Shown here piece by piece: positions 19,987 to 39,260 of a stretch of DNA of 64,000 nucleotides. Below the pieces are notes generated by a model. The model was not told the origin of the DNA, made no database searches, and worked only from the letters and a program-made list of their open reading frames with translations. The stretch comes from an uncultured Bdellovibrionales bacterium (lineage in GTDB: Bacteria > Patescibacteriota > Minisyncoccia > Moranbacterales > UBA1568): contig CAYLJX010000001.1 of NCBI GenBank assembly GCA_964384235.1, positions 169,110 through 233,109 of the forward strand. The letters run 5' to 3'. Numbering within the stretch: position 1 is the stretch's first letter; each line of letters begins with the position of its first letter. A program made the position numbers and the translations under genes.

Positions 19987-20352
19987 AGTTTGATTTTTTC
20001 GTGTTGCTTTTTACACTTTTCTTCCTTTCCTCGCGGTACGGTTCTCGAACACCTCTCGGCTCGCTTGTCGACAGAACGTCGCCGGTCCGGCTTACGCCAA
20101 GCCTCAGCGTCATCTTTTTGTCTCCGACAAAAAGCTCGTCCCGTCTTGTTTTGTACCGACTCGCTCACCGGACGTGTGACCGAGATTCCGTAAGGCTCCG
20201 AAAGAAAGAAAAGAGTAAGAATCCTTTTCGTTCTATGCAGAATCTGGTTTTAAACAAGCCATAACGATATTATTTTACCAAGAGTCGCGACTATTGACAA
20301 AATTGATGAATTTTGATAACATATTTTGTTTAAGAATTTATCCCCATTCCAT

Positions 20353-21300
20353 ATGAAGAGCCGGAATTTTTGGCTTTCCAAAGAGGTTTTCCTGGGATTG
20401 GCCCTCATGGTCGTGTTGGTCGTCCCGGTGTATGTCTTTGGCGGGTCCAAGGTGATTTTTGTCGACAAGAACGCGAAGGGATCCGAGAAGGGAACCTACA
20501 GTCAGCCGTATCACACCATCGAGCGCGCCCTCAAGCACGCCAAGGAGGGCACGGAAGTGCGCGTGAAGAAGGGAACATACGAGGAGAACATCACGCTCCC
20601 CGAGGACGTGAAGCTCGTCTCCGACAAGGAGGAGCGCGACGCCGTCACCATCAAGGGCGACAGCGACAAAAGAGCGGTCGTGACGATGAAGGATGGATCC
20701 AAGCTCAGTCACGTCACCGTGAAGGATGGCAAGGACGGTATCCTCGTCAAGGAAAACGCCAAGGCGCATATCTTCAACGTGCTCGTCAAGGACAATGATC
20801 GCGACGGCATCCACATCGAATCAGGGAAGACCGACAAGCGTCACCGCGCGTTCATGGAGGACGTGAAGGCGGCGAACAATGGGAAGGCCGGCATCTATGC
20901 CGAGAAGCGCCTCATCGTACTCATCGACTCCGACATCAACGGGAACCGAGGTGACGGTATCGACCTCGCGGCCGGCACCAAGGCCTGGTTCGAGGACAAC
21001 CACATGAGCCACAACCGCGGAAGCGGTGCCAAGCTCATCCTCGACGGTTCCGAGATCTGGAGCAAGGACAATGATTTCCGTTCCAACGGCCGCGAGGGCG
21101 TGGAAGTGAACTCCTATGGCCAGGCCGGACAGATTGGTCTCAAGAAGGCCGACCTCGTCGACAACGGTCACTACGGGATCGCCAAGATCGCCCGTACCGC
21201 AGCCGGTACCAAGGCGTTCGGCGGACTTCTCCTTCAGGACGGTGTCCGTATCGAGAGCAATGGTATGGGAGCACAGTCTCCTATCGTCCGCGGTTTCTAA
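20353..21300 (+). CDS. Secreted right-handed parallel beta-helix repeat protein (pectin-lyase fold; possible polysaccharide lyase/depolymerase)
   Basis: Repeated GDGI/NRGDGIDL/GREGVEV turns characteristic of beta-helix repeats; N-terminal TM/signal sequence. Confidence 0.6.
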   Translation: MKSRNFWLSKEVFLGLALMVVLVVPVYVFGGSKVIFVDKNAKGSEKGTYSQPYHTIERALKHAKEGTEVRVKKGTYEENITLPEDVKLVSDKEERDAVTIKGDSDKRAVVTMKDGSKLSHVTVKDGKDGILVKENAKAHIFNVLVKDNDRDGIHIESGKTDKRHRAFMEDVKAANNGKAGIYAEKRLIVLIDSDINGNRGDGIDLAAGTKAWFEDNHMSHNRGSGAKLILDGSEIWSKDNDFRSNGREGVEVNSYGQAGQIGLKKADLVDNGHYGIAKIARTAAGTKAFGGLLLQDGVRIESNGMGAQSPIVRGF

Positions 21301-21324
21301 TCCGCTCCGTAACCGGAGGCTTCT

Positions 21325-22497
21325 ATGAAAATCGCATTCATCGGACAAAAGGGAATCCCCGCCATCTCCGGTGGCGTGGAAAAGCACGTCGAGAAGCTCG
21401 CAACGAGGCTCGCGCAGTCGGGACATGAGGTGACTGTCTATGTCCGTCCGCACTACACGAACCCGCGCCTCACGAAATTCCAGGGTGTCCGACTCGTCCA
21501 TCTGCCGAGCATCCGGACCAAGCACCTCGACGCCATCACACATGCGTTCATGGCGACAGTGCACGCGCTGTTCCAGCCGTACGATGTCATCCACTATCAG
21601 ATGATCGGTTCGTCGGTACTTTCGATCATTCCTCGTCTCCTAAAACCGGGCACGCGGGTGGTAGCGACGTTTCACAGCCGTGACTATTTCCACAAGAAGT
21701 GGAACGCCTTCGCGCGCCTGTGCCTGCGGATGGCGGAGTATCTTACCTGTCGCTTTCCGGAAAAGACCATCGCCATCAGCGAAACGCTCTTCGAACATGC
21801 GAAAGCCAAGTATGGGAAAGAGCTCGTTCTCATCCCGAACGGCGCCGAGACCGGTTTCGAACCGGATACCGAACCGCTCAATCAGTGGGGACTCCGACCG
21901 AAGCGCTATGTCCTCTCGGTGAGCCGTCTCGTCGAGCACAAGGGTATCCACTATCTCATCAAGGCGTTCCAGGACCTGGAGCGCATGAACAAGGTGCCCA
22001 ACAACTTCAAGCTGGTCATTGTCGGAACGCATGCCGAGACGCCGGAATACGAGAAGTATCTCAAGGTGGTAAGCGCCGGTTCCGCGAATATCCTTCTTGT
22101 GGGGGAACAGACTGGGAAAACACTTGCAGCCCTTTTCTCACATGCGCTCCTCTTCGTGCAGCCGTCCGAGGACGAGGGATTGTCCCTGGCCCTGCTCGAG
22201 GCGATGGGATACGGGGTCGCTCCCATCGTGAGCGATATCCCCGCCAATGTCGAAGCGATCAAATCCGACTGCGGGAGCATTTTCCGGAACAAGGACGTCG
22301 AATCGCTCAAATCCGAACTCGCGTATTTCATCAACCGTCCCGAAGAAGCCGAAGCGATGGGGAAACTCGCCAAAGCCAGGATAGAAGAACACTACAGTTG
22401 GGACGCCATCGCCAGGCGGACCGAGGAAGTCTACGACGACCTCATCAAACAGCACAGCATCAAGAAAGGAAACTATGCGCATCTTCGATCGAAGTGA
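21325..22497 (+). CDS. Glycosyltransferase family 4
   Basis: MKIAFIGQKGIPAISGGVEKHV... GT4 N-terminus; C-terminal EGLSLALLEAMGYGVAPIVSD motif; SD GGAGG. Confidence 0.85.
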   Translation: MKIAFIGQKGIPAISGGVEKHVEKLATRLAQSGHEVTVYVRPHYTNPRLTKFQGVRLVHLPSIRTKHLDAITHAFMATVHALFQPYDVIHYQMIGSSVLSIIPRLLKPGTRVVATFHSRDYFHKKWNAFARLCLRMAEYLTCRFPEKTIAISETLFEHAKAKYGKELVLIPNGAETGFEPDTEPLNQWGLRPKRYVLSVSRLVEHKGIHYLIKAFQDLERMNKVPNNFKLVIVGTHAETPEYEKYLKVVSAGSANILLVGEQTGKTLAALFSHALLFVQPSEDEGLSLALLEAMGYGVAPIVSDIPANVEAIKSDCGSIFRNKDVESLKSELAYFINRPEEAEAMGKLAKARIEEHYSWDAIARRTEEVYDDLIKQHSIKKGNYAHLRSK

Positions 22498-23557
22498 TCT
22501 GAAATCCCTTTTCGCGAAGTGGGGCCGCGCGTTCGTCGTGGCCTTTGTCTTCGCGGTGTTCGCGAGCGGACTCGTCCTGCTTGATACGTTCCGCGGATAC
22601 CAGTCCGAGATCCGTGTCCTGGTCATCATGCGCGCCGGACAGTCGGCGGAGAGCGCCGATCAGGTGATCGGGAACATCGCCGAGCTTCCGAAAAACCTTT
22701 CTTTCTACGAGCGCGTGCTCGCTGACAATGATTTCCTCGAGGACCGTTTCGCCGGACAGACCCCCGATGACCGCAAGGCACTCTGGAATGAGACAGTCTC
22801 CGTCACCCAAAGCGACGAGAGCGGCATGCTCATGATCCGGGCGGAAGGGGAGAGTCCGGAAGAGGCGAGGCTTCTTGCCGAACAGACGGGGAAGACCTTG
22901 TTTGCAGTGACGGGGCGGTACTACGATATCAGGACCGATATCGATATGCGCGTGGTCGACGGACCGATTACTGGAACCGTCGTCGTTTCCCCGGTCCTGT
23001 ATGTCGTAACGAGCATCGTTTCTGGTTTCATCGTCACACTCCTGTTTTTCGTTTTTCTCTCGCTCCTGGAAAAGATCCCGGCGCGAAGGTTGAAAAAGCG
23101 CGAAACGCTCGAAATCTTCGTGCCGCATGACGAGGCGCCCAAGAAGACTTTCGGAGGATACGCGCAAGGTGACAGCGTCCCGTATATCGATCCGCGCACC
23201 TTCGTGCCCAAGAGACCGACCTCGCTCATTTCTTCCTTTGAGTCACAGAGCCAGGAAATTCATCCGGTAAAGAAGGAGGAGAAGAAGGAGGCGGTGCACA
23301 CTGGTACCAAAGCCTCCGCTCCTGCCAACCTCCCGATCGCCGAGGAAGAAGTATCTTTGTCATTCGGTTCGGGTGTGACAGAAATCATGGAGGAACCGAT
23401 CGTCTTGGAGAAAGAGCCGAAAGAAAAGCAGGCTGTCTTCGGAGACGAGAAGATCATGCCGGCCAAGGAAACGCCTGCCGAAGAGGATCTCTCCCGCGAA
23501 CCGACGATCGAGGAATACAAGCGCCGCCTCAACGAACTCCTCTCTGGAGGAAAGTGA
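22475..23557 (+). CDS. Wzz / polysaccharide co-polymerase-like membrane protein with a low-complexity E/K/P-rich C-terminal tail (paralog of 10066)
   Basis: Two TM helices flank a periplasmic domain; C-terminal region KKEEKKEAVHTG...EEEVSLSF. Confidence 0.5.
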   Translation: MRIFDRSDLKSLFAKWGRAFVVAFVFAVFASGLVLLDTFRGYQSEIRVLVIMRAGQSAESADQVIGNIAELPKNLSFYERVLADNDFLEDRFAGQTPDDRKALWNETVSVTQSDESGMLMIRAEGESPEEARLLAEQTGKTLFAVTGRYYDIRTDIDMRVVDGPITGTVVVSPVLYVVTSIVSGFIVTLLFFVFLSLLEKIPARRLKKRETLEIFVPHDEAPKKTFGGYAQGDSVPYIDPRTFVPKRPTSLISSFESQSQEIHPVKKEEKKEAVHTGTKASAPANLPIAEEEVSLSFGSGVTEIMEEPIVLEKEPKEKQAVFGDEKIMPAKETPAEEDLSREPTIEEYKRRLNELLSGGK

Positions 23558-23623
23558 CTCCGAGCTTGTCGAGGAGTCACCCTGAACGAAGTCGAAGAGT
23601 CTCGTATTGATGATTGAATTACT

Positions 23624-24994
23624 ATGAAAAAGTATTCGACGAAATTTTGGATTATTTTTTGGGTCGTTGCCATCCTGTTTCTCACGGGCTGGTACGCCTT
23701 TTGGGAATTCAAGAACCGCAATATCGATGACCTGAACGCCCTCACCGGTCTCTTGCCGGAAAGCGAGACCAAAGCCGATCTGCAGACACTTCTCGCGATC
23801 GCGGATACGCTCCTGCATACGGACGGTGAGACCAAGACGTTTCTCATCCTTTTCCAGAACAATCTCGAGCTCCGGCCCGGAGGCGGATTCATCGGGAGCT
23901 TCGGCATTCTCAAGGTGAAAGACGGTTCCGTCATGGAATTCCAGGTGCATGACACGGGAAATTTCGACGGGCGCATCCCGGATATCGTTCCGGCACCATA
24001 TCCCATGCCGGAAACATTGCGGGTCAAGTGGCTCAAACTGCGTGATTCCAACTACTCTCCCGATTTCACGACCAACGCCGCGAAGGCGGAAGAATTCTAC
24101 CGTCTTGGACAGGGAGGGGAGCAGTTCGACGGTGTCGTGGGGATCACGACCAACGTGCTTGCATCGTTCTTGAAAGTGACCGGACCGGTCGAGGTGCCGG
24201 GATATCCGGGTGTTTACGGATCGGACAATGCCGTGCTCGATCTGGAGTATCAGGTGGAACAGGGCTTCGTGGGGCAGAACATCGACCGCGGAGAACGCAA
24301 GAGCATCATGAACGCTCTCGGCAGAGCCATCCTCGACAAGGCCAAGGACCTGAGTCTCGCCAAGAAGTACGAACTCTTCGAAACGGTGCTCGACGACCTC
24401 CATCGCAAGGACATCCAACTCGCCTTCAAGGAGAAGGAATTACAGGAACGCGTGGAACGCTCCGGCTGGAGCGGCAGAATGGACCGCACCTGGCAGGATG
24501 ATTATCTTCTTGCGGTGGATGCCAATCTGAGCGCCCTCAAGACCGACTACAAGATGAAGCGGCGTATCGACTATACCGTCGATCTGCGTCCGAGCGAACC
24601 GAGCGCCACGGCGGTCGTCACCTATACCCACACCGGCAAGACCAAAGACTACATGACGCGGGACTATCAGACGTTCCTGCGCCTCTATGTGCCGGACGGG
24701 AGCTGGCTCAAACGCGTCTCCGGCAATACCACACCGGTCGTCTACGGAAGCGAGCTCGGCAAGAAGAGTTTCGGCGTCCTGGTGCAGGTGCCGCTCGGCA
24801 CGGAGAAGAGCGTGACGTTCGAATATGTCTTGCCGAAAAACATCGACGCTTCGGCGTATGATCTCAAGATCCAGAAACAGCCCGGTGTGAACGACATCCC
24901 GGTACGCCTCACCATCATCGGAAAGGACAGATCAAAAACGGAAAAGGAGTTCACTCTGAACCGGGATACGACGCTTGATGCGCTCTCGGAGTAG
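23624..24994 (+). CDS. Membrane-anchored hypothetical protein (possibly DUF4012-like), associated with the polysaccharide cluster
   Basis: N-terminal TM helix followed by a large soluble domain; no catalytic motifs recognised. Confidence 0.4.
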   Translation: MKKYSTKFWIIFWVVAILFLTGWYAFWEFKNRNIDDLNALTGLLPESETKADLQTLLAIADTLLHTDGETKTFLILFQNNLELRPGGGFIGSFGILKVKDGSVMEFQVHDTGNFDGRIPDIVPAPYPMPETLRVKWLKLRDSNYSPDFTTNAAKAEEFYRLGQGGEQFDGVVGITTNVLASFLKVTGPVEVPGYPGVYGSDNAVLDLEYQVEQGFVGQNIDRGERKSIMNALGRAILDKAKDLSLAKKYELFETVLDDLHRKDIQLAFKEKELQERVERSGWSGRMDRTWQDDYLLAVDANLSALKTDYKMKRRIDYTVDLRPSEPSATAVVTYTHTGKTKDYMTRDYQTFLRLYVPDGSWLKRVSGNTTPVVYGSELGKKSFGVLVQVPLGTEKSVTFEYVLPKNIDASAYDLKIQKQPGVNDIPVRLTIIGKDRSKTEKEFTLNRDTTLDALSE

Positions 24995-29270: not shown

Positions 29271-30689
29271 ATGGATCTGAAACGATTGTCCCAACTGAAA
29301 AGCGTCCATATGATCGGCATCAAGGGTGCCGGGATGACGGCGCTCGCGGAACTCCTGAAGAAGCAGGGCGTCGCGGTGAGCGGTTCCGACACGGACGAAG
29401 TCTTTTTCACCGATCGCATTCTCAAGAAGGAGAAAATTCCCGTCACGGAGCATTTCGCTCCCGAGAACATCCCGGAGAATGTCAAAGCAGTCATCTATTC
29501 TACCGCCTACACTCCGGAGAAGAACGATGAACTGAAAGCGGCCTTCGAAAGGAAGAATCTGCCGGTACTTAGTTATCCGGAAGCGTTGGGGCTACTCACT
29601 CAGGAGAAAATGACACTCGCGGTCTGCGGTACCCATGGCAAGACGACCACGAGCGCGCTTTTGGCGGAGACACTCGAACACTGCGGACTGGATCCGTCGG
29701 CCATCGTGGGGAGCCGCATCATGAATTGGGAGGGAAACGCTCTTTCCGGAGAGGGGAAATATCTCGTCCTGGAAGCGGATGAATATCAGAACAAACTCGC
29801 CCAATACCAGCCCTTCGGGGCGATCCTCACCAGCGCGGACTATGATCACCCCGATTTCTTTCCCGATGAGAAGAGTTACGAGGAGGTTTTCGTCGAGTTC
29901 GTGAAGAAGATCCCGGCGCATGGTGTCCTGGTCTACTGCGCGGATTCGGCCGAGGTGGTCCGGATCGCTGAGCACGCGACGTGCAAAAAATTCTCCTACG
30001 GCTTTCTCGAGGGAGCGGATTTCCAGATCGTCGAGTACCGGCCGATTCCGCCGGGTTTTCTCGAAGACGGGCATGCTCTTCGGCAGTCGTTCTCCGTCAT
30101 CTATCAGGGGTCGCGCCTGGGGGAATGTTCACTCCGGTTGGCCGGGCGGCACAACGCCCTCAATGCGACAGCGGTCCTCGCGATGGCACTCTTTCTCAAT
30201 CAGGATATCGAGACGGTGACGGCCGCTTTCAAAAAGTTCTCCGGGACGGAGCGCCGGTTCGAGTATATCGGCGAACGCTACGGGGCGCTCATCTATGACG
30301 ACTATGCCCATCATCCCGAGGAGATCCGTGTGACACTGCGGGCGTTCCGTGATCTCTTTCCGGAGAAGAAGCTCCACGTCATCTTCCATCCGCACACCTT
30401 TACGCGCACCAAGGCACTCCTCACGGATTTCGCGCAGAGCTTCGACGATGCCGACAGCGTGGCGATTTTGGATATCTACGGGAGCGCTCGCGAGGAGCAG
30501 GGGGGTGTCTCGTCACAGGACCTCGTCGACCTCATCAACCGCTTTTTCCCCGGCAAAGCGACTCATGTTCCGTCGGTACCGGAACTCATCGGGGAAACGG
30601 AATCGAAGATGGGACGTCAGGATATCGTGATCACGCTCGGCGCCGGCAACGTCTGGGAGATTTCGCACGCGCTAGCGAAGAAAAAATAG
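29271..30689 (+). CDS. murC: UDP-N-acetylmuramate--L-alanine ligase
   Basis: IGIKGAGMTALAELL and GTHGKTTTS P-loop; Mur ligase middle and C-terminal domains. Confidence 0.92.
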   Translation: MDLKRLSQLKSVHMIGIKGAGMTALAELLKKQGVAVSGSDTDEVFFTDRILKKEKIPVTEHFAPENIPENVKAVIYSTAYTPEKNDELKAAFERKNLPVLSYPEALGLLTQEKMTLAVCGTHGKTTTSALLAETLEHCGLDPSAIVGSRIMNWEGNALSGEGKYLVLEADEYQNKLAQYQPFGAILTSADYDHPDFFPDEKSYEEVFVEFVKKIPAHGVLVYCADSAEVVRIAEHATCKKFSYGFLEGADFQIVEYRPIPPGFLEDGHALRQSFSVIYQGSRLGECSLRLAGRHNALNATAVLAMALFLNQDIETVTAAFKKFSGTERRFEYIGERYGALIYDDYAHHPEEIRVTLRAFRDLFPEKKLHVIFHPHTFTRTKALLTDFAQSFDDADSVAILDIYGSAREEQGGVSSQDLVDLINRFFPGKATHVPSVPELIGETESKMGRQDIVITLGAGNVWEISHALAKKK

Positions 30690-30853
30690 AAAAAATTTTC
30701 CCGAAAACCTTCCTATTCGAGACACTTAAAATTCCGAGCGGGCACGGTTCCGCCGAAGAGGTGGAGAGCGAGGAATTTTAGGAACGAGTGACTCGCCGGG
30801 GAAACGAGTGTGGTCGAGAAAGGAAGGTTGAGGGAAAAATTAAAACCACACCT

Positions 30854-31783
30854 ATGTTCACCGTCAAAAGAAACGTACCACTGGCTCCGATGACTACCTT
30901 CAAGATCGGAGGCAAGGCGGAATACTTCACGGAAGTCTCCGGCGCGTTGGAGCTGGCTGAGGCGCTCGAGTACGCCGAGAACAACAAGTTGCCTGTGTTC
31001 GTCTTCGGCGGCGGGAGCAATATCCTGTTTTCCGACAAAGGTTTCGCCGGCATAGTCATCCGGCTTCAGAACGGCGGGCTCAAAGTAAGCGGTGAGAAGA
31101 TCATCGTCGGGGCCGGTATCCCGCTCTTCGACGTGGTCAAAGCGGCTCGGGACGCTGGCCTTGCCGGTATCGAGAACCTGGCCGGCATCCCGGGATCTTT
31201 CGGTGGTGCGGTGCGCGGCAACGCCGGAGCGTTCGGAACGGAAATCGGTTCGGTCATATCAACGGTCAAGGCCTTCGCTCAGGATACGGGGCTGCTCACC
31301 GAGTATCGCAGAGACGAATGTGATTTCGGCTACCGTACCAGTCTTTTCAAGAAGCGACCGGGAACGATAGTCATTTCCGCGGAACTCATCCTGAAACCGG
31401 GAAACAGACAAGAGCTTGAGCGTATCGTGGAGGAAACGGTAGCGAAGCGCGAGGCCAAGCATCCGCAGTCGGCGAGCTGTGCCGGATCGTTCTTCATCAA
31501 TCCGATCGTCGAGGATGCAAACCTTTTGGAAGAATTCGAGAAGGATAACGGCGAACCGGCCCGCGGCGGCAAGCTGCCTGCCGGTTGGCTCATCGATCAT
31601 GCGGGACTGCGCGGAAAAAAAGTCGGCGGTGCACAGATCAGCGACCGTCATCCGAACTATCTCGTGAATACGGGGAACGCGACGGCCGAGGATGTCGTCA
31701 TGCTCGCAAGTCTTGTCAAGCAGCGCGTGCGTGACGAGCTTGGTGTCCAGCTCAAGGAAGAAGTACAGCTCGTGGGATTCTGA
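30854..31783 (+). CDS. murB: UDP-N-acetylenolpyruvoylglucosamine reductase
   Basis: FAD-binding region (TTFKIGG...FVFGGGSN, GIPGSFGGAVRGNAGAFG); C-terminal MurB domain. The ATG at 30854 is within track ORF 30788.. Confidence 0.9.
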   Translation: MFTVKRNVPLAPMTTFKIGGKAEYFTEVSGALELAEALEYAENNKLPVFVFGGGSNILFSDKGFAGIVIRLQNGGLKVSGEKIIVGAGIPLFDVVKAARDAGLAGIENLAGIPGSFGGAVRGNAGAFGTEIGSVISTVKAFAQDTGLLTEYRRDECDFGYRTSLFKKRPGTIVISAELILKPGNRQELERIVEETVAKREAKHPQSASCAGSFFINPIVEDANLLEEFEKDNGEPARGGKLPAGWLIDHAGLRGKKVGGAQISDRHPNYLVNTGNATAEDVVMLASLVKQRVRDELGVQLKEEVQLVGF

Positions 31784-32192
31784 AAGATATTTCTCGTCCG
31801 GACGTAGTACGGAGTGAAGAAGAAAATTCAATCACGGTATCTTCGACCAACCCCCTATGAAGATGCTTCCGAAAAAAAACGAAACGAAAACGCATCACGA
31901 TGATCATATCGTGATGACAGGCAGGCCGATCGGCAGGACGTACGCGTCACGCTGACCGGCCTGTTTTCTTTTCGAAAAAAACAAAAACAAACAATAACGG
32001 GCAAGAAACCTTTTTGAGAGAGCTCGTTTTTTCTTTTTGGAATTTTCAGGAAGTCATCGCTTCGGAGCAGGGGAGCCGAAGGTCGAAAGCGGATGACGGG
32101 GAACGTATAATCCGTAATCAATGATCAAAAATCCATCAATGTCGGCAACAGGTTTCCAAGGGTGAAGGAAGTCTGCTCCCGATACCAATCCT

Positions 32193-32765
32193 ATGCTGAA
32201 TATCATAAAAAGCCTGGTAGTCGTCATGGTAGCGGCGGCGGTCGTGAGCGGGGCGACCTATGCCGTGTTTTCCGCCACGGACTCCATCGATGACAACACC
32301 ATCACGACGGCCACCATCACGTTCGACGCCAAGGGCGAAGCGAACGAGACGACCTTGGCCAAACCGCTCAGTGCCAGCGGCCTTCTGCCGGGGGAATTTT
32401 CCGACTGGGCGCGCGGTGCGCTCTACAATCAGAGTGCCGTGCCGGTGAAGTTTTACATGTACGTGGACAACCTGGACGGTGCCGCCTGCCCCAAGGTCAA
32501 TCTGCGGGTGACGACCGGTCATGCCGGGAGCGACGCGGGTGAACGGGCGAGAGACGTCTTCAATGACGCGCTCCTCGATCTGGCAGGGGAGGCGAACCGG
32601 ATCGAAGTGACGGGTGTTCCTCCGTTCGAGACGGCCGGTCCCAATATCACGCAGGTGATCCAGCAGCGGGCACAACTCGACGAATCGACGGACAACGGTT
32701 CGCAGGGACAGGGCTGTACCTGGGATGAAGTCTTCATCGCGGAAGGTGCTCCCGAAGAAGAATAG
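32193..32765 (+). CDS. TasA/camelysin-like secreted protein with SipW-cognate class signal peptide (copy 1)
   Basis: N-terminus MLNIIKSLVVVMVAAAVVSGATYAVFSATDS matches the SipW-cognate (G-[GA]-T-[YW]-A-x-F-[ST]-x-[TD]) signal class known from TasA/CalY. Paralogous to the next gene. Confidence 0.7.
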   Translation: MLNIIKSLVVVMVAAAVVSGATYAVFSATDSIDDNTITTATITFDAKGEANETTLAKPLSASGLLPGEFSDWARGALYNQSAVPVKFYMYVDNLDGAACPKVNLRVTTGHAGSDAGERARDVFNDALLDLAGEANRIEVTGVPPFETAGPNITQVIQQRAQLDESTDNGSQGQGCTWDEVFIAEGAPEEE

Positions 32766-32806
32766 ATCCGATACTTTCTTCATACATAATACGTAATACC
32801 ACACAT

Positions 32807-33421
32807 ATGGGAGGGATCATACGAAGCATATTCATCGTTCTGGCCGCCGTGGCCATCGTCGGTGTCGGGACGTACTCGTTCTTCAGTACGACCGATACGG
32901 CGAGCGGCAATACGATCACGGCTGGGACGCTTGCGATCGATCTTCTGAACCAGAACACGAGTAATCCGCTTCTGTTCAACATACCGAATGTCCTGCCGGG
33001 ACAGGAGGTATCGGTGAACTTCGACGTGAAGAACGACTCCGTCGCTTCCGGTGTCCAGCTGCGCGGGGCGGCTTTTGGGGCGTGGGACAACGTCTCGGGC
33101 GGGGACAACACACTGTTCAAGGTGACCAAGGTGGAGCGTTGGAACGGTGCGGCGTGGGTGACACTCGCTTCCAATCCGGGCGGCATCACCGGTATCTTCT
33201 ATGACAGCGCCGACGGTACCGACGATGAGGCGAACGACGGCGGAGCCGATGCCTTGTTCACGGTTCCGGCCGGAGGCAAGGACCAGTTCCAGCTCACGGT
33301 GAAGTTCGACGAGTCGGCGGGAGATGTCTATCAGGGAGAGCAGTACAACGCCGCCATCAAGGTCCAGGCCCGTCAGAACGGTGCGACGACCTGGCCGGTA
33401 GATCTCAATACCGGTTTCTAG
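32807..33421 (+). CDS. TasA/camelysin-like secreted protein with SipW-cognate class signal peptide (copy 2)
   Basis: N-terminus MGGIIRSIFIVLAAVAIVGVGTYSFFSTTDTASGNTITAGTL, comparable to TasA GGGTWAAFND...SGTL. Confidence 0.7.
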   Translation: MGGIIRSIFIVLAAVAIVGVGTYSFFSTTDTASGNTITAGTLAIDLLNQNTSNPLLFNIPNVLPGQEVSVNFDVKNDSVASGVQLRGAAFGAWDNVSGGDNTLFKVTKVERWNGAAWVTLASNPGGITGIFYDSADGTDDEANDGGADALFTVPAGGKDQFQLTVKFDESAGDVYQGEQYNAAIKVQARQNGATTWPVDLNTGF

Positions 33422-33489
33422 TCGCGGTTTCTCCGGGGTCGTCCCTTCGAGGGGGCGAAGGGACGATCGGGAGAAGTCGTGTCTGAAAC

Positions 33490-34128
33490 ATGCCTGAGAA
33501 TATGATGAAAAAAATCCTCACGTTTTCCGTCAATGCGATTCTCCTCGGTATGGTCATCCTGGGAGCGTTGATCATCCTCTCGCTCTTGCCGATTCCGGGG
33601 AAGTACCGCATCTATGTGGTACAGTCCGGTTCGATGGAGCCGACCATCCGGACCGGAAGCCTCATTTTCGTGAAGCCGCAAAGCGGATATGCGACAGGCG
33701 ATATCGTGACGTGGCGTCCCATCTCGGGCAGGACGACCGTCACGCACCGTATCGTCGAGACGAAGGAGCGGGACGGTCGGACGGTCTTCTTCACCAAGGG
33801 GGATGCCAATGAGGCTCGGGACGAGGCGATGCAGGAGCAGCAGATCGTCGGCAAGACGCTCTTCTCCCTTCCGTATCTCGGCTACCCGGTCAACCTCGCG
33901 AAAACCAGGGCGGGGTTCCTGCTCTTGGTCATCCTCCCGGCTTTTCTCATCGTGCTCGATGAGGTCAATAACATCCGCAAGGAACTGGAGCGGCGCTCTC
34001 TCCGAAGGAAAGAAGAGCGAAGGCAGGCTGAAGCGTTTCCAGAAGATATTCCTTTCAGGGTGACATACCCAAAAAATATGAGATCGATGGACGGGATCGT
34101 ACGGTGGCGTCCCTTGAAGACGGTATAA
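33490..34128 (+). CDS. sipW: Signal peptidase I, SipW type (S26B, archaeal/ER-type)
   Basis: Catalytic-Ser box VVQSGSMEPTI, the THRIV box, the TKGDAN box; N-terminal TM and a C-terminal TM plus charged tail. Confidence 0.8.
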   Translation: MPENMMKKILTFSVNAILLGMVILGALIILSLLPIPGKYRIYVVQSGSMEPTIRTGSLIFVKPQSGYATGDIVTWRPISGRTTVTHRIVETKERDGRTVFFTKGDANEARDEAMQEQQIVGKTLFSLPYLGYPVNLAKTRAGFLLLVILPAFLIVLDEVNNIRKELERRSLRRKEERRQAEAFPEDIPFRVTYPKNMRSMDGIVRWRPLKTV

Positions 34129-34138
34129 GACGACCGAT

Positions 34139-34636
34139 ATGCCTCGTATCATGAAAAACATCTTCTTGTCCGCGTTCGTCTGTTTTTCGTTGATCATTTC
34201 GGTCTCTTCCGGGACCCGTTCGACATACTCCGATGAGGACAGGATACGGGGGCACCGGATCGACACGGGACATTGGGAAGAGGAATCCCATGAGAAGGAA
34301 AAAGACCACAAGGAAAAAGACCGGGAAAAAGATATGGATGATGAGAAGGAAGATGAGCACGACGATGCGGTGGCGACGAAAGAAGACGAAGAGTCTCATG
34401 AATCTGCCGCAGTGTCCTCTGTCGCGGAGGAACAAGAAAAAGAAGAGGAAGGAAAACCGGAAGAATCAGAACCTTTGATCGGGTTGCAAAATGCATCGGA
34501 AGAAAAGACTGAAGGGAGTGAAGCGACCAAGGAAGAAAATGAAGAAAAGGAGAAATCCTTGGAAGATTTGGAAGACGATGAGTCGGAGCGGGAGAACGGG
34601 ATGCCTAAGTCCGATGAAGATACGGCAGAAGAGTAG
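34139..34636 (+). CDS. Small secreted, extremely acidic low-complexity (E/K/D-rich) protein, last gene of the sipW locus
   Basis: Signal peptide, then SSGTRSTYSDED, followed by about 130 aa rich in E/D/K. Lower GC than its neighbours. Confidence 0.5.
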   Translation: MPRIMKNIFLSAFVCFSLIISVSSGTRSTYSDEDRIRGHRIDTGHWEEESHEKEKDHKEKDREKDMDDEKEDEHDDAVATKEDEESHESAAVSSVAEEQEKEEEGKPEESEPLIGLQNASEEKTEGSEATKEENEEKEKSLEDLEDDESERENGMPKSDEDTAEE

Positions 34637-34639
34637 CGT

Positions 34640-35473
34640 CTAGCTTTTCTCGAGGAAAAGGGCGGTTTTTCCTTCCGTGAGATTGTCGCTTCCTTTTAGG
34701 GCTTTCACGGAGAAGATACCGAGATCGAAGAGGCGGACGGCTGCCTGGAACGACATGAGCTCGGTCTCGCCGTAGACGATCGTCTGTCGGGCGGGCGGAA
34801 TCTCACCCGCGCGCTTCTCCAGTTCGCTTAAGGGGATGTTGACGGCGCCTTGGAGATGGATTTTCCGGAAAGCTTCCGGAGTCCGGACATCGAGCACGAA
34901 GAGGCCGGTGTTTCGATCGGCAAAAAGTTTCTTCAGCTCGTCCGCCGAGACAAAGGTGACTTTGGACTGGTCGACGAAGGAATTGGGATCGCCGGCCGAG
35001 AGGAGCCGGTTGCCGCCCTGCTTCCAGGCCTCGAACCCTCCCTCCAGGAAGAAGTAGGGGAATGATTTCCGGGCGAGGATGTTTCGGGCCGTCTCGTAGG
35101 CCGCCAGGTCCTGTTCCGAGAAAACGATGACGACGAGTTCATTCTTTCCGGGAGCCAGGTTTTCCAGGCTGCTTCCCGGCAGGGAGACAGAGTTCGGAAT
35201 GTGTTCGGCATCAAAGGCTTCTCGGGGTCGGATGTCGACGACGTATGTCTTTTCACCGTTCTGGATTTTTTTCCGGAGAACTTCGGGAGAGATGGTAGCG
35301 GTTTGGTCCTTCGATTTCGTTTCCTCCTTTTTGGCGAGATCGTTTATTTCCTGTTCCTTTTCGGACTTCGACCGCAGGATATCCTTCCCGATGAAGTACG
35401 CGCCCACGAGCAGGATAAGCCCGATACCGATGAGAACGGCCGTGACGTCATGTTTTCTGTTTTTTTGGGACAT
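34640..35473 (-). CDS. Membrane-anchored tandem rhodanese-domain sulfurtransferase-like protein
   Basis: N-terminal TM followed by two rhodanese-like domains (YVVDIRPREAFDAEHIPNSVSLP ... FVLDVRTPEAFRKIHLQGAVNIP). Confidence 0.7.
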   Translation of the reverse strand: MSQKNRKHDVTAVLIGIGLILLVGAYFIGKDILRSKSEKEQEINDLAKKEETKSKDQTATISPEVLRKKIQNGEKTYVVDIRPREAFDAEHIPNSVSLPGSSLENLAPGKNELVVIVFSEQDLAAYETARNILARKSFPYFFLEGGFEAWKQGGNRLLSAGDPNSFVDQSKVTFVSADELKKLFADRNTGLFVLDVRTPEAFRKIHLQGAVNIPLSELEKRAGEIPPARQTIVYGETELMSFQAAVRLFDLGIFSVKALKGSDNLTEGKTALFLEKS

Positions 35474-35509
35474 GACTTTTCGTTTCGGATGTTTCTTGAA
35501 ACAAAGACC

Positions 35510-36562
35510 TTACTGAAGGAGGGAACCGATGAAGCCCGCGTTCCCGCGCATGAATTCGGCGACGGACATCTTATCCTTGCCTTCGAGTTGGATCTCTTCG
35601 AGGAGAATGACGCCTGATCCGGACTGGACGCCGATCTTTTCCCCGAGTTCGAAGACTTCGCCTGTCCGATAGTGCGTCTCCGGGGTCTGTTTCTGAAAAG
35701 AGATCTGATGGAGTTTCAGGCGCAGGAGATCGTCGTCCTTTTTCCAAAAGGTGAAGATGCCCGGCCATGGGGAGAGCGCGCGGTAGCGGTTGTAGATCTC
35801 CTCGGCATCGTTCGTCCAGACGATCCGACCATCCTGGCGTTCGATGAGCTGGCAGAGGGTGGCCCCGTCGTTTTCCTGCTGTTGCGGCGTGATCCTCCGC
35901 TCCACCCAGAGCGGAATGGTTTCCAGGAGGAGTTCCCGTCCGATGTGGACGAGTCTCGCCGTGAGGTCCTCGCGCATCTCCGTGGGAAAGATCTCGATGC
36001 CTTTCTGGGCGAGGATGTCACCGGTGTCCATGCCTTCGTCCATCTGCATGATGGTGATACCGGTCGTCGTATCGCCGGAAAGGAGCGCGTTGTGGATGGG
36101 GGAGGCGCCGCGCCATCTCGGGAGGAGCGAAGCATGCACGTTGATGCAGCCGAAGCCAGGGATCTTCAGGAGTTCCTCGGGAAGGATTTTGCCGTAGGCG
36201 GCGACCACGATGAGGTCCGGTTTCCAGGCTCGTACCTTCTCGATGGCGGCTTCGTCGAGTTTCCCGGGCTGTTCAATCGGTAGATCGTGGGCCAAGGCGA
36301 GTGTTTTCACGGCGCTCTGCTCGATCTCTTTCTTGCGGCCGACGGGCTTGTCGGGTTTGGTCACGACGCCGACGATGTTGTACTCTTTCGTGATGAGACC
36401 CTCGAGCATCGAGGCGGCAAAGGCGGGCGTTCCCATGAAGACGACGCGGATCTTGGGGGTTTCCCGGTACGATGCTTCTTCTGTCCGGGGTTCTTCCTGA
36501 GGTGTCGTCTTTTTTTCTTGCACCGTCTGTCGTTTCTGACGGAACATGTCGAGGAAAGCCAT
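35510..36562 (-). CDS. fmt: Methionyl-tRNA formyltransferase, with about 40-aa N-terminal extension
   Basis: RVVFMGTPAFA, HASLLPRWRGASPI, and C-terminal Fmt domain. Confidence 0.9.
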   Translation of the reverse strand: MAFLDMFRQKRQTVQEKKTTPQEEPRTEEASYRETPKIRVVFMGTPAFAASMLEGLITKEYNIVGVVTKPDKPVGRKKEIEQSAVKTLALAHDLPIEQPGKLDEAAIEKVRAWKPDLIVVAAYGKILPEELLKIPGFGCINVHASLLPRWRGASPIHNALLSGDTTTGITIMQMDEGMDTGDILAQKGIEIFPTEMREDLTARLVHIGRELLLETIPLWVERRITPQQQENDGATLCQLIERQDGRIVWTNDAEEIYNRYRALSPWPGIFTFWKKDDDLLRLKLHQISFQKQTPETHYRTGEVFELGEKIGVQSGSGVILLEEIQLEGKDKMSVAEFMRGNAGFIGSLLQ

Positions 36563-36569
36563 AGGGGTT

Positions 36570-37049
36570 TTAGATTACCAATTTCTCTTTTGCTGTCTGT
36601 TTCTTGAAACGGTTGACGATGAGGATGCCGTTGAGATGGTCGATCTCGTGCTGGAGCACGATGGCGAGGAGACCGGTGGCGCGGAGCTTTTTCGGGAGAC
36701 CCTTTTCATTCAGGTACTTCACGGTGACCGTTTCCGATCGGATGATGGGGAAGAACTCTCCGGGGAGACTGAGACAGCCTTCCTCGAAGACGATCTTTTC
36801 CTGGGAGAAGGACGTTATCTCGGGATTGATGAAGTAACCGATCTTGCCATCGACTTCGGTGACGCATACCGCGATGGAACGGTCGATCTGCGGCGCGGCG
36901 AGACCGATGCCTTTCTCCTTGTGCATGGTCTCTACCATTTCCGGGAGGAGGGCTTGGATCTCGGGACTCTGCGGATCTTTGACCTTTTCGGTCTTTTTGA
37001 GAAGCACCTTGGTGGTGGCGCCGGTGATGAGTGTGAGCATAGGAGTCAT
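36570..37049 (-). CDS. def: Peptide deformylase
   Basis: GIGLAAPQ, EGCLSLPG and HEIDHLNG motifs. Confidence 0.95.
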   Translation of the reverse strand: MTPMLTLITGATTKVLLKKTEKVKDPQSPEIQALLPEMVETMHKEKGIGLAAPQIDRSIAVCVTEVDGKIGYFINPEITSFSQEKIVFEEGCLSLPGEFFPIIRSETVTVKYLNEKGLPKKLRATGLLAIVLQHEIDHLNGILIVNRFKKQTAKEKLVI

Positions 37050-38998
37050 GTCAGCGAAAGCGGATCGACGTCTATGATGAGATCCTTGTTGTGTCTCACG
37101 AGGAGCGAGCGAAGCGGAGGAAACAAGGAAGTGTCGTTCGGGATACGGATGAGGATCTGGCTTCGGAAGGTTCCTGACCGTTTGACGGCGACCGGGGGAA
37201 GGGGTGGGGCGATGCGGAGTGCAGGTTCTTTTTTCGCGAGAGATTCCAGCTCTTCAAAAAGTCGTGAGGCCTTTTCTTTGGTTTTTTCTTCCGAAGTGTC
37301 CTGCAAAAAGACGCTTATGAGTCTGGCAAACGGCGGATACCGGAGGGATTCCCGTTCGGCGAGGATCCGTTCGGTAAAGGTCTCCTGTGTTTCGCCGGTT
37401 ATCCGTTGAAAAAAGGTGCTTTCCGGATGGAAGGTCTGAACGATCACCTTGCCCGTGGGAGCGACCCGTATCCTTGCTCTCAGGATGTCCTGGAAGAGCC
37501 GTTCGTCGGCCCGAAAATCGGGAAAAGAAAGCAAACTGTCCGCGTCAATCATAGCAACGAGCGAGAGTTTGGGCAAGTCCGGACCCTTGAGGATCATCTG
37601 GGTTCCGATGAGGATATCAACCGTTCCGGAGGCGATTTTTTCATACAGTTTTTCTGCCGCTCCGGGCTTTTTCATGGTCGATCCGTCGGCCCGGAAAACT
37701 TTGGCTCCCGGGAAGAGTCGGAGCACCTCTCGTTCGATGCGCTCCGTACCGAAACCGATGTGCCGAAACGACAGGTGGCCGCACTGCGGGCAATTCGGGA
37801 AAAGACTGGTCCGATATCCGCAGGAGAGGCAGTGGAACGACCCATCCCTGTTGCCGATGAGGGCGTGGCCGCAGTCGGGGCAGCGGAAAAGCGTCCGGCA
37901 GCGTTCGCACACGGAAAAAGCGGAGAGTCCCTGACGGTTGATATAGAGGAGGGCCTGCTTCTTTTCGGTGAGGACAGTACGAAGGTCGGCGATGAGTTCT
38001 TCCGAGAGAGGGGAATAGTTTTTCCGGTAGCGTTCCAGCCGGAGGTTGACGACCGAGAGATTGCCGAGAGCAGAAGGTTTCTTCGGTGTCACATCGGTGA
38101 TCGTGCCGTCCTTGATTCTCTGGATGCTTTCTACGCTCGGCGTCCGTGATGTCAAAAGAAGCTTTGCTTGAGTGAAATGAACGAGAGTCGTCGCGACGCG
38201 CCTGCCATCGTAGCGCGGGCTCATGTCCCACTGCTTGTAACTCCCGTCCTGTTCCTCGGTCATGACGATGGTCCCGAGCTTCTGAAACGGCGCGAAGAGA
38301 CTCTGGCGCGTCCCGATGACGACCTTGGCCTCGTCTTGTCGGATGCGCTCCCATGCGCTGTAGAACGGACCGTCGGCGAGCCTGCTGTGAAGGATGGCGA
38401 TCTCGTCTTTTTTGAAAAGATTCGAGAACGTTTCAAAGAGCGGGGGAATGAGTGTGAGCTCCGGCACGAGGATGAGGATCTGCTGTTTTTTGACAATCCC
38501 TTTTTTGGCAATGAGGGCCAAGATTCTCGCTTCGTCAGAAAAGGAAGACGTGTCAAGGAACGCAGTGCCTCCCCGGGAGAGACGATCGAAACGCTCCAAT
38601 ATTTCCTTTTCACTCTTCGTCGCAGTGAGCGTCTTTCTTTTTTTCTCGGTCACGACTGGTCGTTTTCTCTCCTTGGTCTGTTTTGGAATGAAGTGCTTCA
38701 GCGTCTTCCCGAGCGGTGTGAAATATTCCTCGCTTATCCATTCGGCAAGTTTCAGCTGCGTCTCCGTGAGAAATTCCGGAGAGAGGACCTTGGTGATGCG
38801 CTTCATCCAGTGCGGCGGACGTCCCGGAAGCGGTGTGCAGTCGGAAACGATTCCCTGGAGTTTCTGTCGGCCGAAGGGGATGGCGACCAGCGTGCCGGGA
38901 GCGACCGGTTCGTCCGAGAGGTAGCTGAAAAACGGCGATCGGCCCAGGGGGAGGATCGAGAGCGGCGCGACTTCCAGGCGGTAGTGAGAGGTATTCAT
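37046..38998 (-). CDS. priA: Primosomal protein N' (replication restart helicase PriA)
   Basis: DEAD/DEAH helicase core plus Cys-rich zinc-binding insert (CERCRTLFRCPDCGH...CLSCGY...CPQCGH). The ATG at 38998 has SD GAGGT; an alternative ATG lies at 39007. Confidence 0.9.
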   Translation of the reverse strand: MNTSHYRLEVAPLSILPLGRSPFFSYLSDEPVAPGTLVAIPFGRQKLQGIVSDCTPLPGRPPHWMKRITKVLSPEFLTETQLKLAEWISEEYFTPLGKTLKHFIPKQTKERKRPVVTEKKRKTLTATKSEKEILERFDRLSRGGTAFLDTSSFSDEARILALIAKKGIVKKQQILILVPELTLIPPLFETFSNLFKKDEIAILHSRLADGPFYSAWERIRQDEAKVVIGTRQSLFAPFQKLGTIVMTEEQDGSYKQWDMSPRYDGRRVATTLVHFTQAKLLLTSRTPSVESIQRIKDGTITDVTPKKPSALGNLSVVNLRLERYRKNYSPLSEELIADLRTVLTEKKQALLYINRQGLSAFSVCERCRTLFRCPDCGHALIGNRDGSFHCLSCGYRTSLFPNCPQCGHLSFRHIGFGTERIEREVLRLFPGAKVFRADGSTMKKPGAAEKLYEKIASGTVDILIGTQMILKGPDLPKLSLVAMIDADSLLSFPDFRADERLFQDILRARIRVAPTGKVIVQTFHPESTFFQRITGETQETFTERILAERESLRYPPFARLISVFLQDTSEEKTKEKASRLFEELESLAKKEPALRIAPPLPPVAVKRSGTFRSQILIRIPNDTSLFPPLRSLLVRHNKDLIIDVDPLSLT

Positions 38999-39260
38999 AT
39001 ACCTCATTTTAGCACGAAACAGCCTTTATTTTTCTCTTTATAAAATCGCCGTTTTAATATTTCTCCCTTCAGAAATCAGCATTTTCTTTCTCCGGCTGAC
39101 GTCGGTCACATGTGCGACGAGCAAGCCGGTAACGGTCGAGCGTGACGGATGGTCTCGACAGGACAGCTCCCCGTTCGGCAGAGTGAGTCGGACATGTTCG
39201 ACGGAAGGAAAGGGAAAGAAAAGGGATTGATTTTCTGAAGGGTATTCTGTGCCAATATAT

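Follow-up and report, generated by a model that had tools for sequence, protein, structure and literature searches.

We propose that four co-oriented genes at positions 32193–34636 of the window (the whole 64-kb stretch of DNA analyzed here), downstream of murB, constitute a self-contained cassette for an extracellular filament of the TasA type, assembled by donor-strand complementation, in a bacterium of the Candidate Phyla Radiation (CPR, Patescibacteria), most likely of Moranbacteria. Judging from sequence family models and predicted structures, we put the probability of this reading at about 70%. All four genes lie on the + strand. Gene A (32193–32765) encodes a putative TasA-superfamily subunit paralogue of 190 amino acids with the N-terminus ...VVSGATYAVFSATDS, and gene B (32807–33421) a TasA-family subunit of 204 amino acids with the N-terminus ...IVGVGTYSFFSTTDTASGNTITAGTL. 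They are followed by a SipW-like signal peptidase I of the S26B (archaeal/endoplasmic reticulum) type (33490–34128, 212 amino acids) and by gene 4 (34139–34636, 165 amino acids), which encodes a secreted hyper-acidic protein. The sequence features described in the first-pass annotation of this DNA were all located at the positions it gave.

The S26B assignment made in that annotation was upheld by TIGR02228 (archaeal-type signal peptidase I), which matched at 109.3 bits against a cutoff of 51.85. The catalytic Ser, His, and Asp are retained, with SGSMEP, HR, and KGD in register with human SEC11A (7p2p; E = 6.5e-12). SGSMEP starts at residue 46 (Ser48, nt 33625), THRIV at residue 85 (His86, nt 33742), and KGDAN at residue 103 (Asp105, nt 33796). 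The protein has two transmembrane (TM) segments (residues ~6–40 and ~136–162) and a basic C-terminal tail; gene callers place its start at 33505, which gives 207 amino acids. The equivalog model of Bacillus SipW, NF046067, scored 107.8 bits, below its cutoff of 190. By sequence, the peptidase is SipW-like without being an orthologue as the equivalog model strictly defines it.

The SipW-cognate signal model TIGR04088 matched both paralogues, as had been supposed (A, 24.3 bits; B, 21.4 bits; cutoff 19). The expected match to the TasA family (Peptidase_M73/TasA, PF12389) was found in B above the gathering score (32.6 versus 22.5 bits), and a precomputed PF12389 hit is present in all 34 of its 34 homologues. 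Gene A gave no hit to PF12389 or to any other Pfam family, and its link to the TasA family comes from B, because the homology of the two spans their entire length (hhalign probability 99.3%, E = 7.5e-21). In the AlphaFold monomer models built from the family alignments, A and B each have a β-sandwich core, and the N-terminal ~40 residues are of low confidence or unfolded. Comparison with the TasA jelly-roll, which the first-pass annotation had suggested, showed that the predicted folds of both proteins match the TasA fibre subunit. For the B model, the TasA fibre was the sole Foldseek match below 1e-3; for the A model, archaeal β-sandwich filament subunits were the next-best matches. Structural alignments of A and B with TasA have 17–19% identity. 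Cys99 and Cys175 are invariant in the A family, and B contains neither His nor Cys. A camelysin-type metalloprotease was considered and ruled out: the absence of His excludes such a site in B, and HExxH occurs in neither protein.

Among 1.84 billion cluster representatives, a profile search found 6318 relatives at E ≤ 1e-3 and only 31 at E ≤ 1e-30, so that the A/B group is, at the sequence level, a small subfamily within a very large superfamily. Relatives of A and B at 55–64% identity belong to Candidatus Moranbacteria/Moraniibacteriota, and more distant homologues of B were found in metagenome-assembled genomes (MAGs) of Paceibacteria, Levyibacteria, and Curtissbacteria. Identical or near-identical copies are also present on metagenome contigs. 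These relatives place the window in a CPR (Patescibacteria) genome. B is the universally conserved subunit, and A is a lineage-specific paralogue. The roles of the two are presumably divided, and A is possibly a minor or tip subunit.

The three putative substrates share a predicted processing site. We took the SipW cut in TasA to be GTWA↓AF (the arrow marks the cut) and placed the equivalent sites accordingly. The predicted cuts are GATYA↓VF in A (signal peptide, residues 1–24; first mature codon at 32265), VGTYS↓FF in B (residues 1–24; 32879), and SGTRS↓TY in gene 4 (signal peptide to residue 28). In each, position −1 is a small residue, position −3 is Thr, and P2′ is aromatic. We infer that the S26B peptidase cleaves the precursors of A, B, and gene 4. 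The cuts would be followed by the donor-strand-like segments VFSATDSIDDNTITTATITFDA in A and FFSTTDTASGNTITAGTLAIDL in B. In B, the putative donor-strand region lies within the significant matches to PF12389 and TIGR04088 and is unfolded in the monomer model. In TasA, an aromatic P2′ residue is reported to make the site a poor LepB substrate (PMC10269814). Mature TasA starts at residue 28, and residues 28–38, the 11 residues after the SipW cut, form the donor strand (PMC9674648). In the fibre, the strand of subunit n−1 completes the sandwich of subunit n, and a subunit releases its own strand only once its own groove is filled (PMC9674648).

Gene 4 appears to carry the same N-terminal module. 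Its probable start is Met5 (nt 34151), and the gene callers' version on Logan contigs has 161 amino acids. Asp and Glu together make up 35% of its residues before processing and 42% after the predicted cut. The predicted mature protein has a pI of 4.2, and its donor-strand-like N-terminus TYSDEDRIRGHRIDTGHW (34223–34276) continues into a low-complexity tail of Glu, Asp, and Lys (34277–34633). A profile made from the first 55 residues of both the A and B families was scored over all 693 open reading frames (ORFs) of the window. It matched gene 4 at residues 5–44, within the first 44 residues of the protein, with 28.1 bits (E = 3.9e-8), and the next-best ORF had an E value of 0.11. Counted from the predicted cut, Y2, D6, I8, G10, I13, T15, G16, and W18 of gene 4 are in register with A and B, and in the gene 4 family, residues are conserved up to ~18 positions beyond the cut (xFSDxDxIxxNxIGTGEW). 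The synteny, the conserved motif, and the profile match together indicate that gene 4 is genuine and that it is the third cassette gene with the A/B N-terminal module.

A search of 5.8 billion proteins found no homologues of gene 4, and orthologues were therefore sought by synteny. The exact sequence, with either start codon, is also absent from a collection of 15 billion proteins; low-complexity proteins of this kind may be systematically missing from protein collections. By its position, gene 4 proved orthologous to a family found after the peptidase in all Moranbacteria-type loci. With TIGR04088 and Pfam, the N-termini of gene 4 and nine positional orthologues had no match above cutoff. In the Moranbacteria-type orthologues, a hydrophobic N-terminus precedes the motif T-x-A-x-F-S-D-x7-8-G-T-G-E-W-I-P, which is followed by ~75 residues forming a domain with two invariant cysteines and then by an acidic tail. 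The middle domain has sub-threshold similarity only, to Fn3_assoc (E = 0.04–0.1). Its family profile found no meaningful match among PDB sequences, TapA included, which leaves no ground for claiming homology to the TapA Ig domain. In the window gene 4 and in the loci L018 and L005, the middle domain is absent, and the motif (GTRSTYSDEDRIRGHRIDTGHW in the window) joins the acidic tail directly. Compared with the window, L018 retains the motif but has a diverged tail sequence that is still acidic in composition. The lower GC content (0.486 versus 0.56–0.61 in the neighbours) that the first-pass annotation had pointed out is present, but it largely follows from the content of Glu, Asp, and Lys codons, which have a low third-position GC content in every gene of the cassette. 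With most of the low GC so explained and the synteny conserved, a foreign origin of gene 4 was rejected.

The guess that the acidic protein could be TapA-like gained support from the shared signal, the donor-strand-like N-terminus, the conserved family following the peptidase, and the layout of the orthologues. The N-terminus of TapA resembles a donor strand and nucleates fibre assembly (PMC9674648), and residues 44–57 alone are enough for biofilm formation (PMC10151520). TapA further consists of an Ig domain with a disulfide and an unstructured, negatively charged C-terminus at residues 191–253 (PMC10151520). Gene 4 has the donor-strand-mimicking N-terminus and the negatively charged C-terminal region but not the central folded Ig-like domain with its disulfide. 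The analogy with TapA is thus architectural, with no demonstrated homology.

The same four-gene order was recovered in related genomes, as the first-pass annotation had proposed to check. The loci compared, 15 in species-representative genomes, span Moranbacteria, Paceibacteria, Levyibacteria, and Curtissbacteria. A B-type gene adjoins the peptidase in 15 of the 15, and also in further metagenome loci, although the flanking genes differ. The Moranbacteria-type loci keep the A–B–peptidase–gene 4 order, apart from L007, in which an A gene was not detected. In loci of the Levyibacteria and Curtissbacteria types, the peptidase gene is followed by one that encodes the same type of signal joined to a lamin-tail domain (LTD, PF00932). 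At three loci (L011:821-2125, L015:6625-7665, and L017:652-1899), an in-frame fusion joins the peptidase to the protein encoded after it, in the order second TM segment, basic linker, third TM segment, ...STFA↓YFSD...NNTFTA..., and LTD. The predicted topology places the cleavage site on the side of the catalytic domain, consistent with cleavage in cis. These Rosetta-stone fusions are the strongest computational evidence that the proteins following the peptidase are its substrates, and in Curtissbacteria-like CPR MAGs they are possible self-processing peptidase–substrate units.

Further proteins accompany the cassette in some of these relatives. In a protein at L010:7897-8934, with equivalents in L012, L013, L014, L015, and L017, RTX calcium-binding repeats (PF00353, E = 1.4e-35) come after an N-terminal domain that weakly resembles TasA (B profile, E = 1e-5 to 1e-7). 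Such RTX proteins in Levyibacteria- and Curtissbacteria-type cassettes hint at calcium-dependent matrix components. Another TasA-like domain protein, at L009:8597-9679 (B-family match, E = 7e-6), has a hydrophobic segment at its C-terminus and might serve as an acceptor subunit anchored in the membrane; nothing equivalent is encoded in the window. The records of L004–L006, L012–L015, and L017 are titled "uncultured Bdellovibrionales" or "uncultured Gammaproteobacteria." Given the gene content, these labels may be wrong; the cassette proteins in these records resemble homologues from Moranbacteria and Levyibacteria.

Here, we propose how the cassette may work. It would be transcribed from its own promoter, downstream of a murB terminator. 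The three pre-proteins (A, B, and gene 4), with signal peptides ending in T-x-[A/S]↓x-[F/Y], would be exported by Sec and cut by the membrane-bound S26B peptidase, an enzyme type that tolerates an aromatic P2′ residue, where LepB-type enzymes would cleave poorly. The cleavage would free an N-terminal strand of ~20 residues on each mature protein. The β-sandwich (jelly-roll) subunits A and B may then polymerize head-to-tail by inserting this strand into the groove of the next subunit, like TasA of Bacillus and the archaeal bundling pili. Gene 4 has the strand and no acceptor groove, so it could stand only at the origin of a polymer; for this reason, it is proposed as the initiator or anchor, and A and B as the polymerizing subunits. 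Its strand would fill the groove of the first subunit, forming a start or cap at the fibre origin like the TapA N-terminus, and the polyanionic, disordered tail may serve as a fibre tether or as a cation binder. By analogy with TapA, we regard the initiator or anchor role as a serious candidate that falls somewhat short of even odds. Fibre formation by polymerization, and a function in a matrix or in attachment to a host, would be the presumable outcome. A more tentative extension, which we consider rather unlikely at present, is that gene 4 is a natural donor-strand-only initiator without a folded domain, the evolutionary equivalent of engineered TapA(1–57), and that the fibres form a second class of CPR surface filaments. 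If so, the fibres might serve host-cell attachment or matrix building beside type IV pili, and the peptidase–substrate fusions of other CPR lineages would be self-processing secretion units.

Several results weigh against the filament interpretation, and some of them would suit A and B as monomeric, nonpolymerizing β-sandwich proteins at the surface or in the medium (adhesins, camelysin-like enzymes, or antimicrobials), whose likeness to TasA is one of fold and export signal. The sequence likeness to TasA proper is limited to the N-terminal 60–70 residues, PF12389 covers only residues 13–77 of B (model positions 15–73 of 196), and the Peptidase_M73 name of this family refers to a supposed metalloprotease. 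The B profile reached TasA among PDB sequences at an E value of only 0.42, aligning the NTxxxGTL and PG motifs (tasgNTlatGTLsidl opposite TasA KSKDATFASGTLDLSA), and the A profile did not reach TasA and had no meaningful hits there. The confidence of the monomer models is also medium (predicted local distance difference test scores of 77 and 75.5). Nevertheless, the most conserved segment shared by A and B is the putative donor-strand region itself, residues 1–40 are of low confidence or unfolded in both models as expected of an exchangeable strand, and the residues of a metalloprotease site are missing. Two paralogues with a peptidase and a strand-bearing accessory protein are moreover the standard layout of a TasA-superfamily filament locus, and we consider monomeric proteins improbable. 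It is slightly less probable still that the S26B enzyme is a general housekeeping signal peptidase whose position beside TasA-like genes is meaningless. Such a function could be imagined because CPR genomes are reduced and a single signal peptidase is conceivable; a scan of the window for LepB-type motifs found none, 64 kb being too little to conclude whether the enzyme is dedicated or sole. This explanation does not account for the constant neighborhood of peptidase and B-type gene among differing flanks or for the three in-frame fusions to a substrate with a SipW-type signal, and even a sole enzyme would still be able to process the cassette proteins.

For gene 4, the main rival to the initiator or anchor is a mere SipW-dependent polyanion that binds cations or fills the matrix without donating a strand or initiating a fibre. 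The tail makes up most of the mature protein, with its 42% of Asp and Glu, and calcium dependence is known for other TasA-superfamily matrices. The donor-like strand is far more charged (Asp, Glu, Arg, and His) than the strands of A and B. No library matched gene 4: TIGR04088 had no match at E ≤ 10 in gene 4 and seven orthologues, one Levyibacteria-type protein following the peptidase reached 11.1 bits against the cutoff of 19, and the link to the signal class was made with a purpose-built profile from the families of the neighboring genes. Because the curated model fails and the lineage-specific profile matches, gene 4 is best described as working like a TIGR04088 member without being a formal one. 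A plain polyanion would hardly need the ~18 conserved residues in register with the A/B strand, since the peptidase requires only those adjacent to the cut; L018 keeps this segment while the tail diverges, and the layout of the orthologues (signal, strand, domain with a Cys pair, and acidic tail) is that of TapA. On this balance, we consider the plain polyanion doubtful and retain the initiator or anchor as the proposed role of gene 4.

The first-pass annotation described the noncoding region before gene A as a long structured leader. The murB gene ends at 31783, which leaves exactly 409 nt before gene A. The length of the gap was thus correctly reported, but its structure comes from terminator-like hairpins, and the gap is better read as a murB terminator, a promoter, and a short 5′ untranslated region (UTR). 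Tandem hairpins at 31893–31916 and 31919–31966 followed by the U-run TTTTCTTTTCG (31893–31975 in all, + strand), ~110–190 nt past the murB stop, fold with a z score of −6.99 and probably form the intrinsic terminator of the trmD-ftsW-murG-murC-murB unit. The relative L018, 80% identical, retains the two hairpins as well as the U-run, and hairpin 1 shows one compensatory A-U to G-C change there. A sigma-70-like promoter candidate, TCGAAA-17-TATAAT, lies at 32083–32111 on the + strand (10 of 12 positions; 5′ UTR of ~80 nt), and L018 preserves the −10 position, with CATAAT. It is the only such site in 31600–34900; shuffled sequences give 1.2 on average, so that it is weak evidence on its own. A 21-nt block at 32153–32173 (GGTTTCCAAGGGTGAAGGAAG) is identical in L018. 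It ends 19 nt before the start codon of gene A, too distant for standard Shine–Dalgarno spacing, and contributes a stem GGUUUCC/GGAAGUC in the minimum free energy fold. Folding of the full gap better than its shuffles (z = −3.19), together with the ~80% conservation in L018 that includes this block near the start codon, could suggest a cis-regulatory RNA leader (a riboswitch or attenuator) controlling the cassette. However, the excess stability comes from the two hairpins and the U-run, which are upstream of the promoter candidate, the 81 nt from the candidate to the ATG of gene A are unstructured (z = 0.24), and an Rfam scan of the intergenic region gave no match at E ≤ 1. The term "long structured leader" is for these reasons not the best description, and the riboswitch or leader idea, which we regard as very improbable, was dropped in favor of a terminator plus a promoter.

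In the wider window, the order from 29271 to 39007 is murC, murB, the gap, A, B, the peptidase, and gene 4, followed in convergent orientation by the genes for a rhodanese protein, fmt, def, and priA; trmD, ftsW, and murG are the upstream neighbors of murC-murB. Upstream of this trmD-to-murB block, a surface-related cluster (20326–24994) encodes a right-handed β-helix protein, a GT4 glycosyltransferase, an unassigned ORF of 360 amino acids, and a DUF4012 protein. The TasA-like cassette of L004 is placed on the other side of the trmD-ftsW...murC block; the cassette and the cell-wall cluster occur together in differing arrangements.

The occurrence outside Firmicutes that the first-pass annotation had stressed is borne out by the CPR host, but it is not new. 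TasA homologues of PF12389 were described as readily identifiable in Patescibacteria (PMC9245690), and NCBI names relatives "TasA family protein" and "SipW-dependent-type signal peptide-containing protein." For the TasA system in CPR bacteria, our literature search found no dedicated study and a single one-line mention of distribution. What is new here is the tie between the gene 4 family and the system, the strand-only architecture, and the peptidase–substrate fusions in other CPR lineages. To our knowledge, most CPR bacteria are episymbionts that have not been cultured, and what is known of their surface biology comes almost entirely from type IV pili. A compact and conserved cassette of the TasA type would be a second candidate appendage or matrix system of these bacteria, for host attachment or aggregation. 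With three substrates of 137–180 mature residues and one peptidase, it would also be a convenient minimal model of chaperone-free donor-strand assembly, and the strand-only acidic accessory a natural test of whether a short N-terminal peptide is sufficient for a TapA-like nucleator. For annotation, the gene 4 family, now "hypothetical" or missing from protein collections, could be linked to the fibre system.

The closest known systems are tapA-sipW-tasA of Bacillus subtilis and sipW-tasA-calY of B. cereus. As in these operons, a dedicated S26B peptidase would be encoded beside its substrates, which have the TIGR04088 signal, the aromatic P2′ residue, and a TasA-like fold with a putative N-terminal donor strand right after the predicted cut. 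The two subunit paralogues are comparable with TasA and CalY, and TapA is likewise an accessory with a donor-strand-mimicking N-terminus and a negatively charged disordered C-terminus. The gene order here is different (A–B–peptidase–accessory), the subunits are shorter (166–180 mature residues versus 234) and only 17–19% identical to TasA in structural alignments, and the peptidase is below the SipW equivalog cutoff. The accessory in the window lacks a folded Ig-like domain altogether, homology to TapA could not be detected in its sequence, and no SinR-type regulator is visible near the cassette. The Bacillus host is a spore-forming Firmicute, whereas the host here is an ultrasmall CPR bacterium.

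Archaeal TasA-superfamily filaments, namely the AbpA bundling pili (7ueg), AbpX, the cannulae of CanX (9h8b), and the Saci_0406 thread (7pnb), are also built from β-sandwich donor-strand subunits, and this group supplied the next-best structural matches of A. Archaeal abpX is followed by a TIGR02228 peptidase gene, as in the cassette described here, and archaeal loci similarly encode acidic subunits (pI ~4), major and minor, with tip or initiator proteins. Major and minor subunits, a tip or initiator, and a TIGR02228 peptidase are found together in TasA-superfamily loci across bacteria and archaea (preprint 10.64898/2026.01.04.697558). The archaeal proteins are more distant in sequence, and the AbpX-associated peptidases are reported to have ten TM helices, in contrast to two here. 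The initiators and terminators of chaperone–usher pili (for example PapH, and strand donation of the FimC type) follow the logic proposed here, in that a strand provided in trans completes an incomplete β-sandwich and fixes one end of the polymer. Their proteins are unrelated and appeared only among the lower-ranked fold matches, and the system proposed here has no usher, periplasmic chaperone, or outer membrane.

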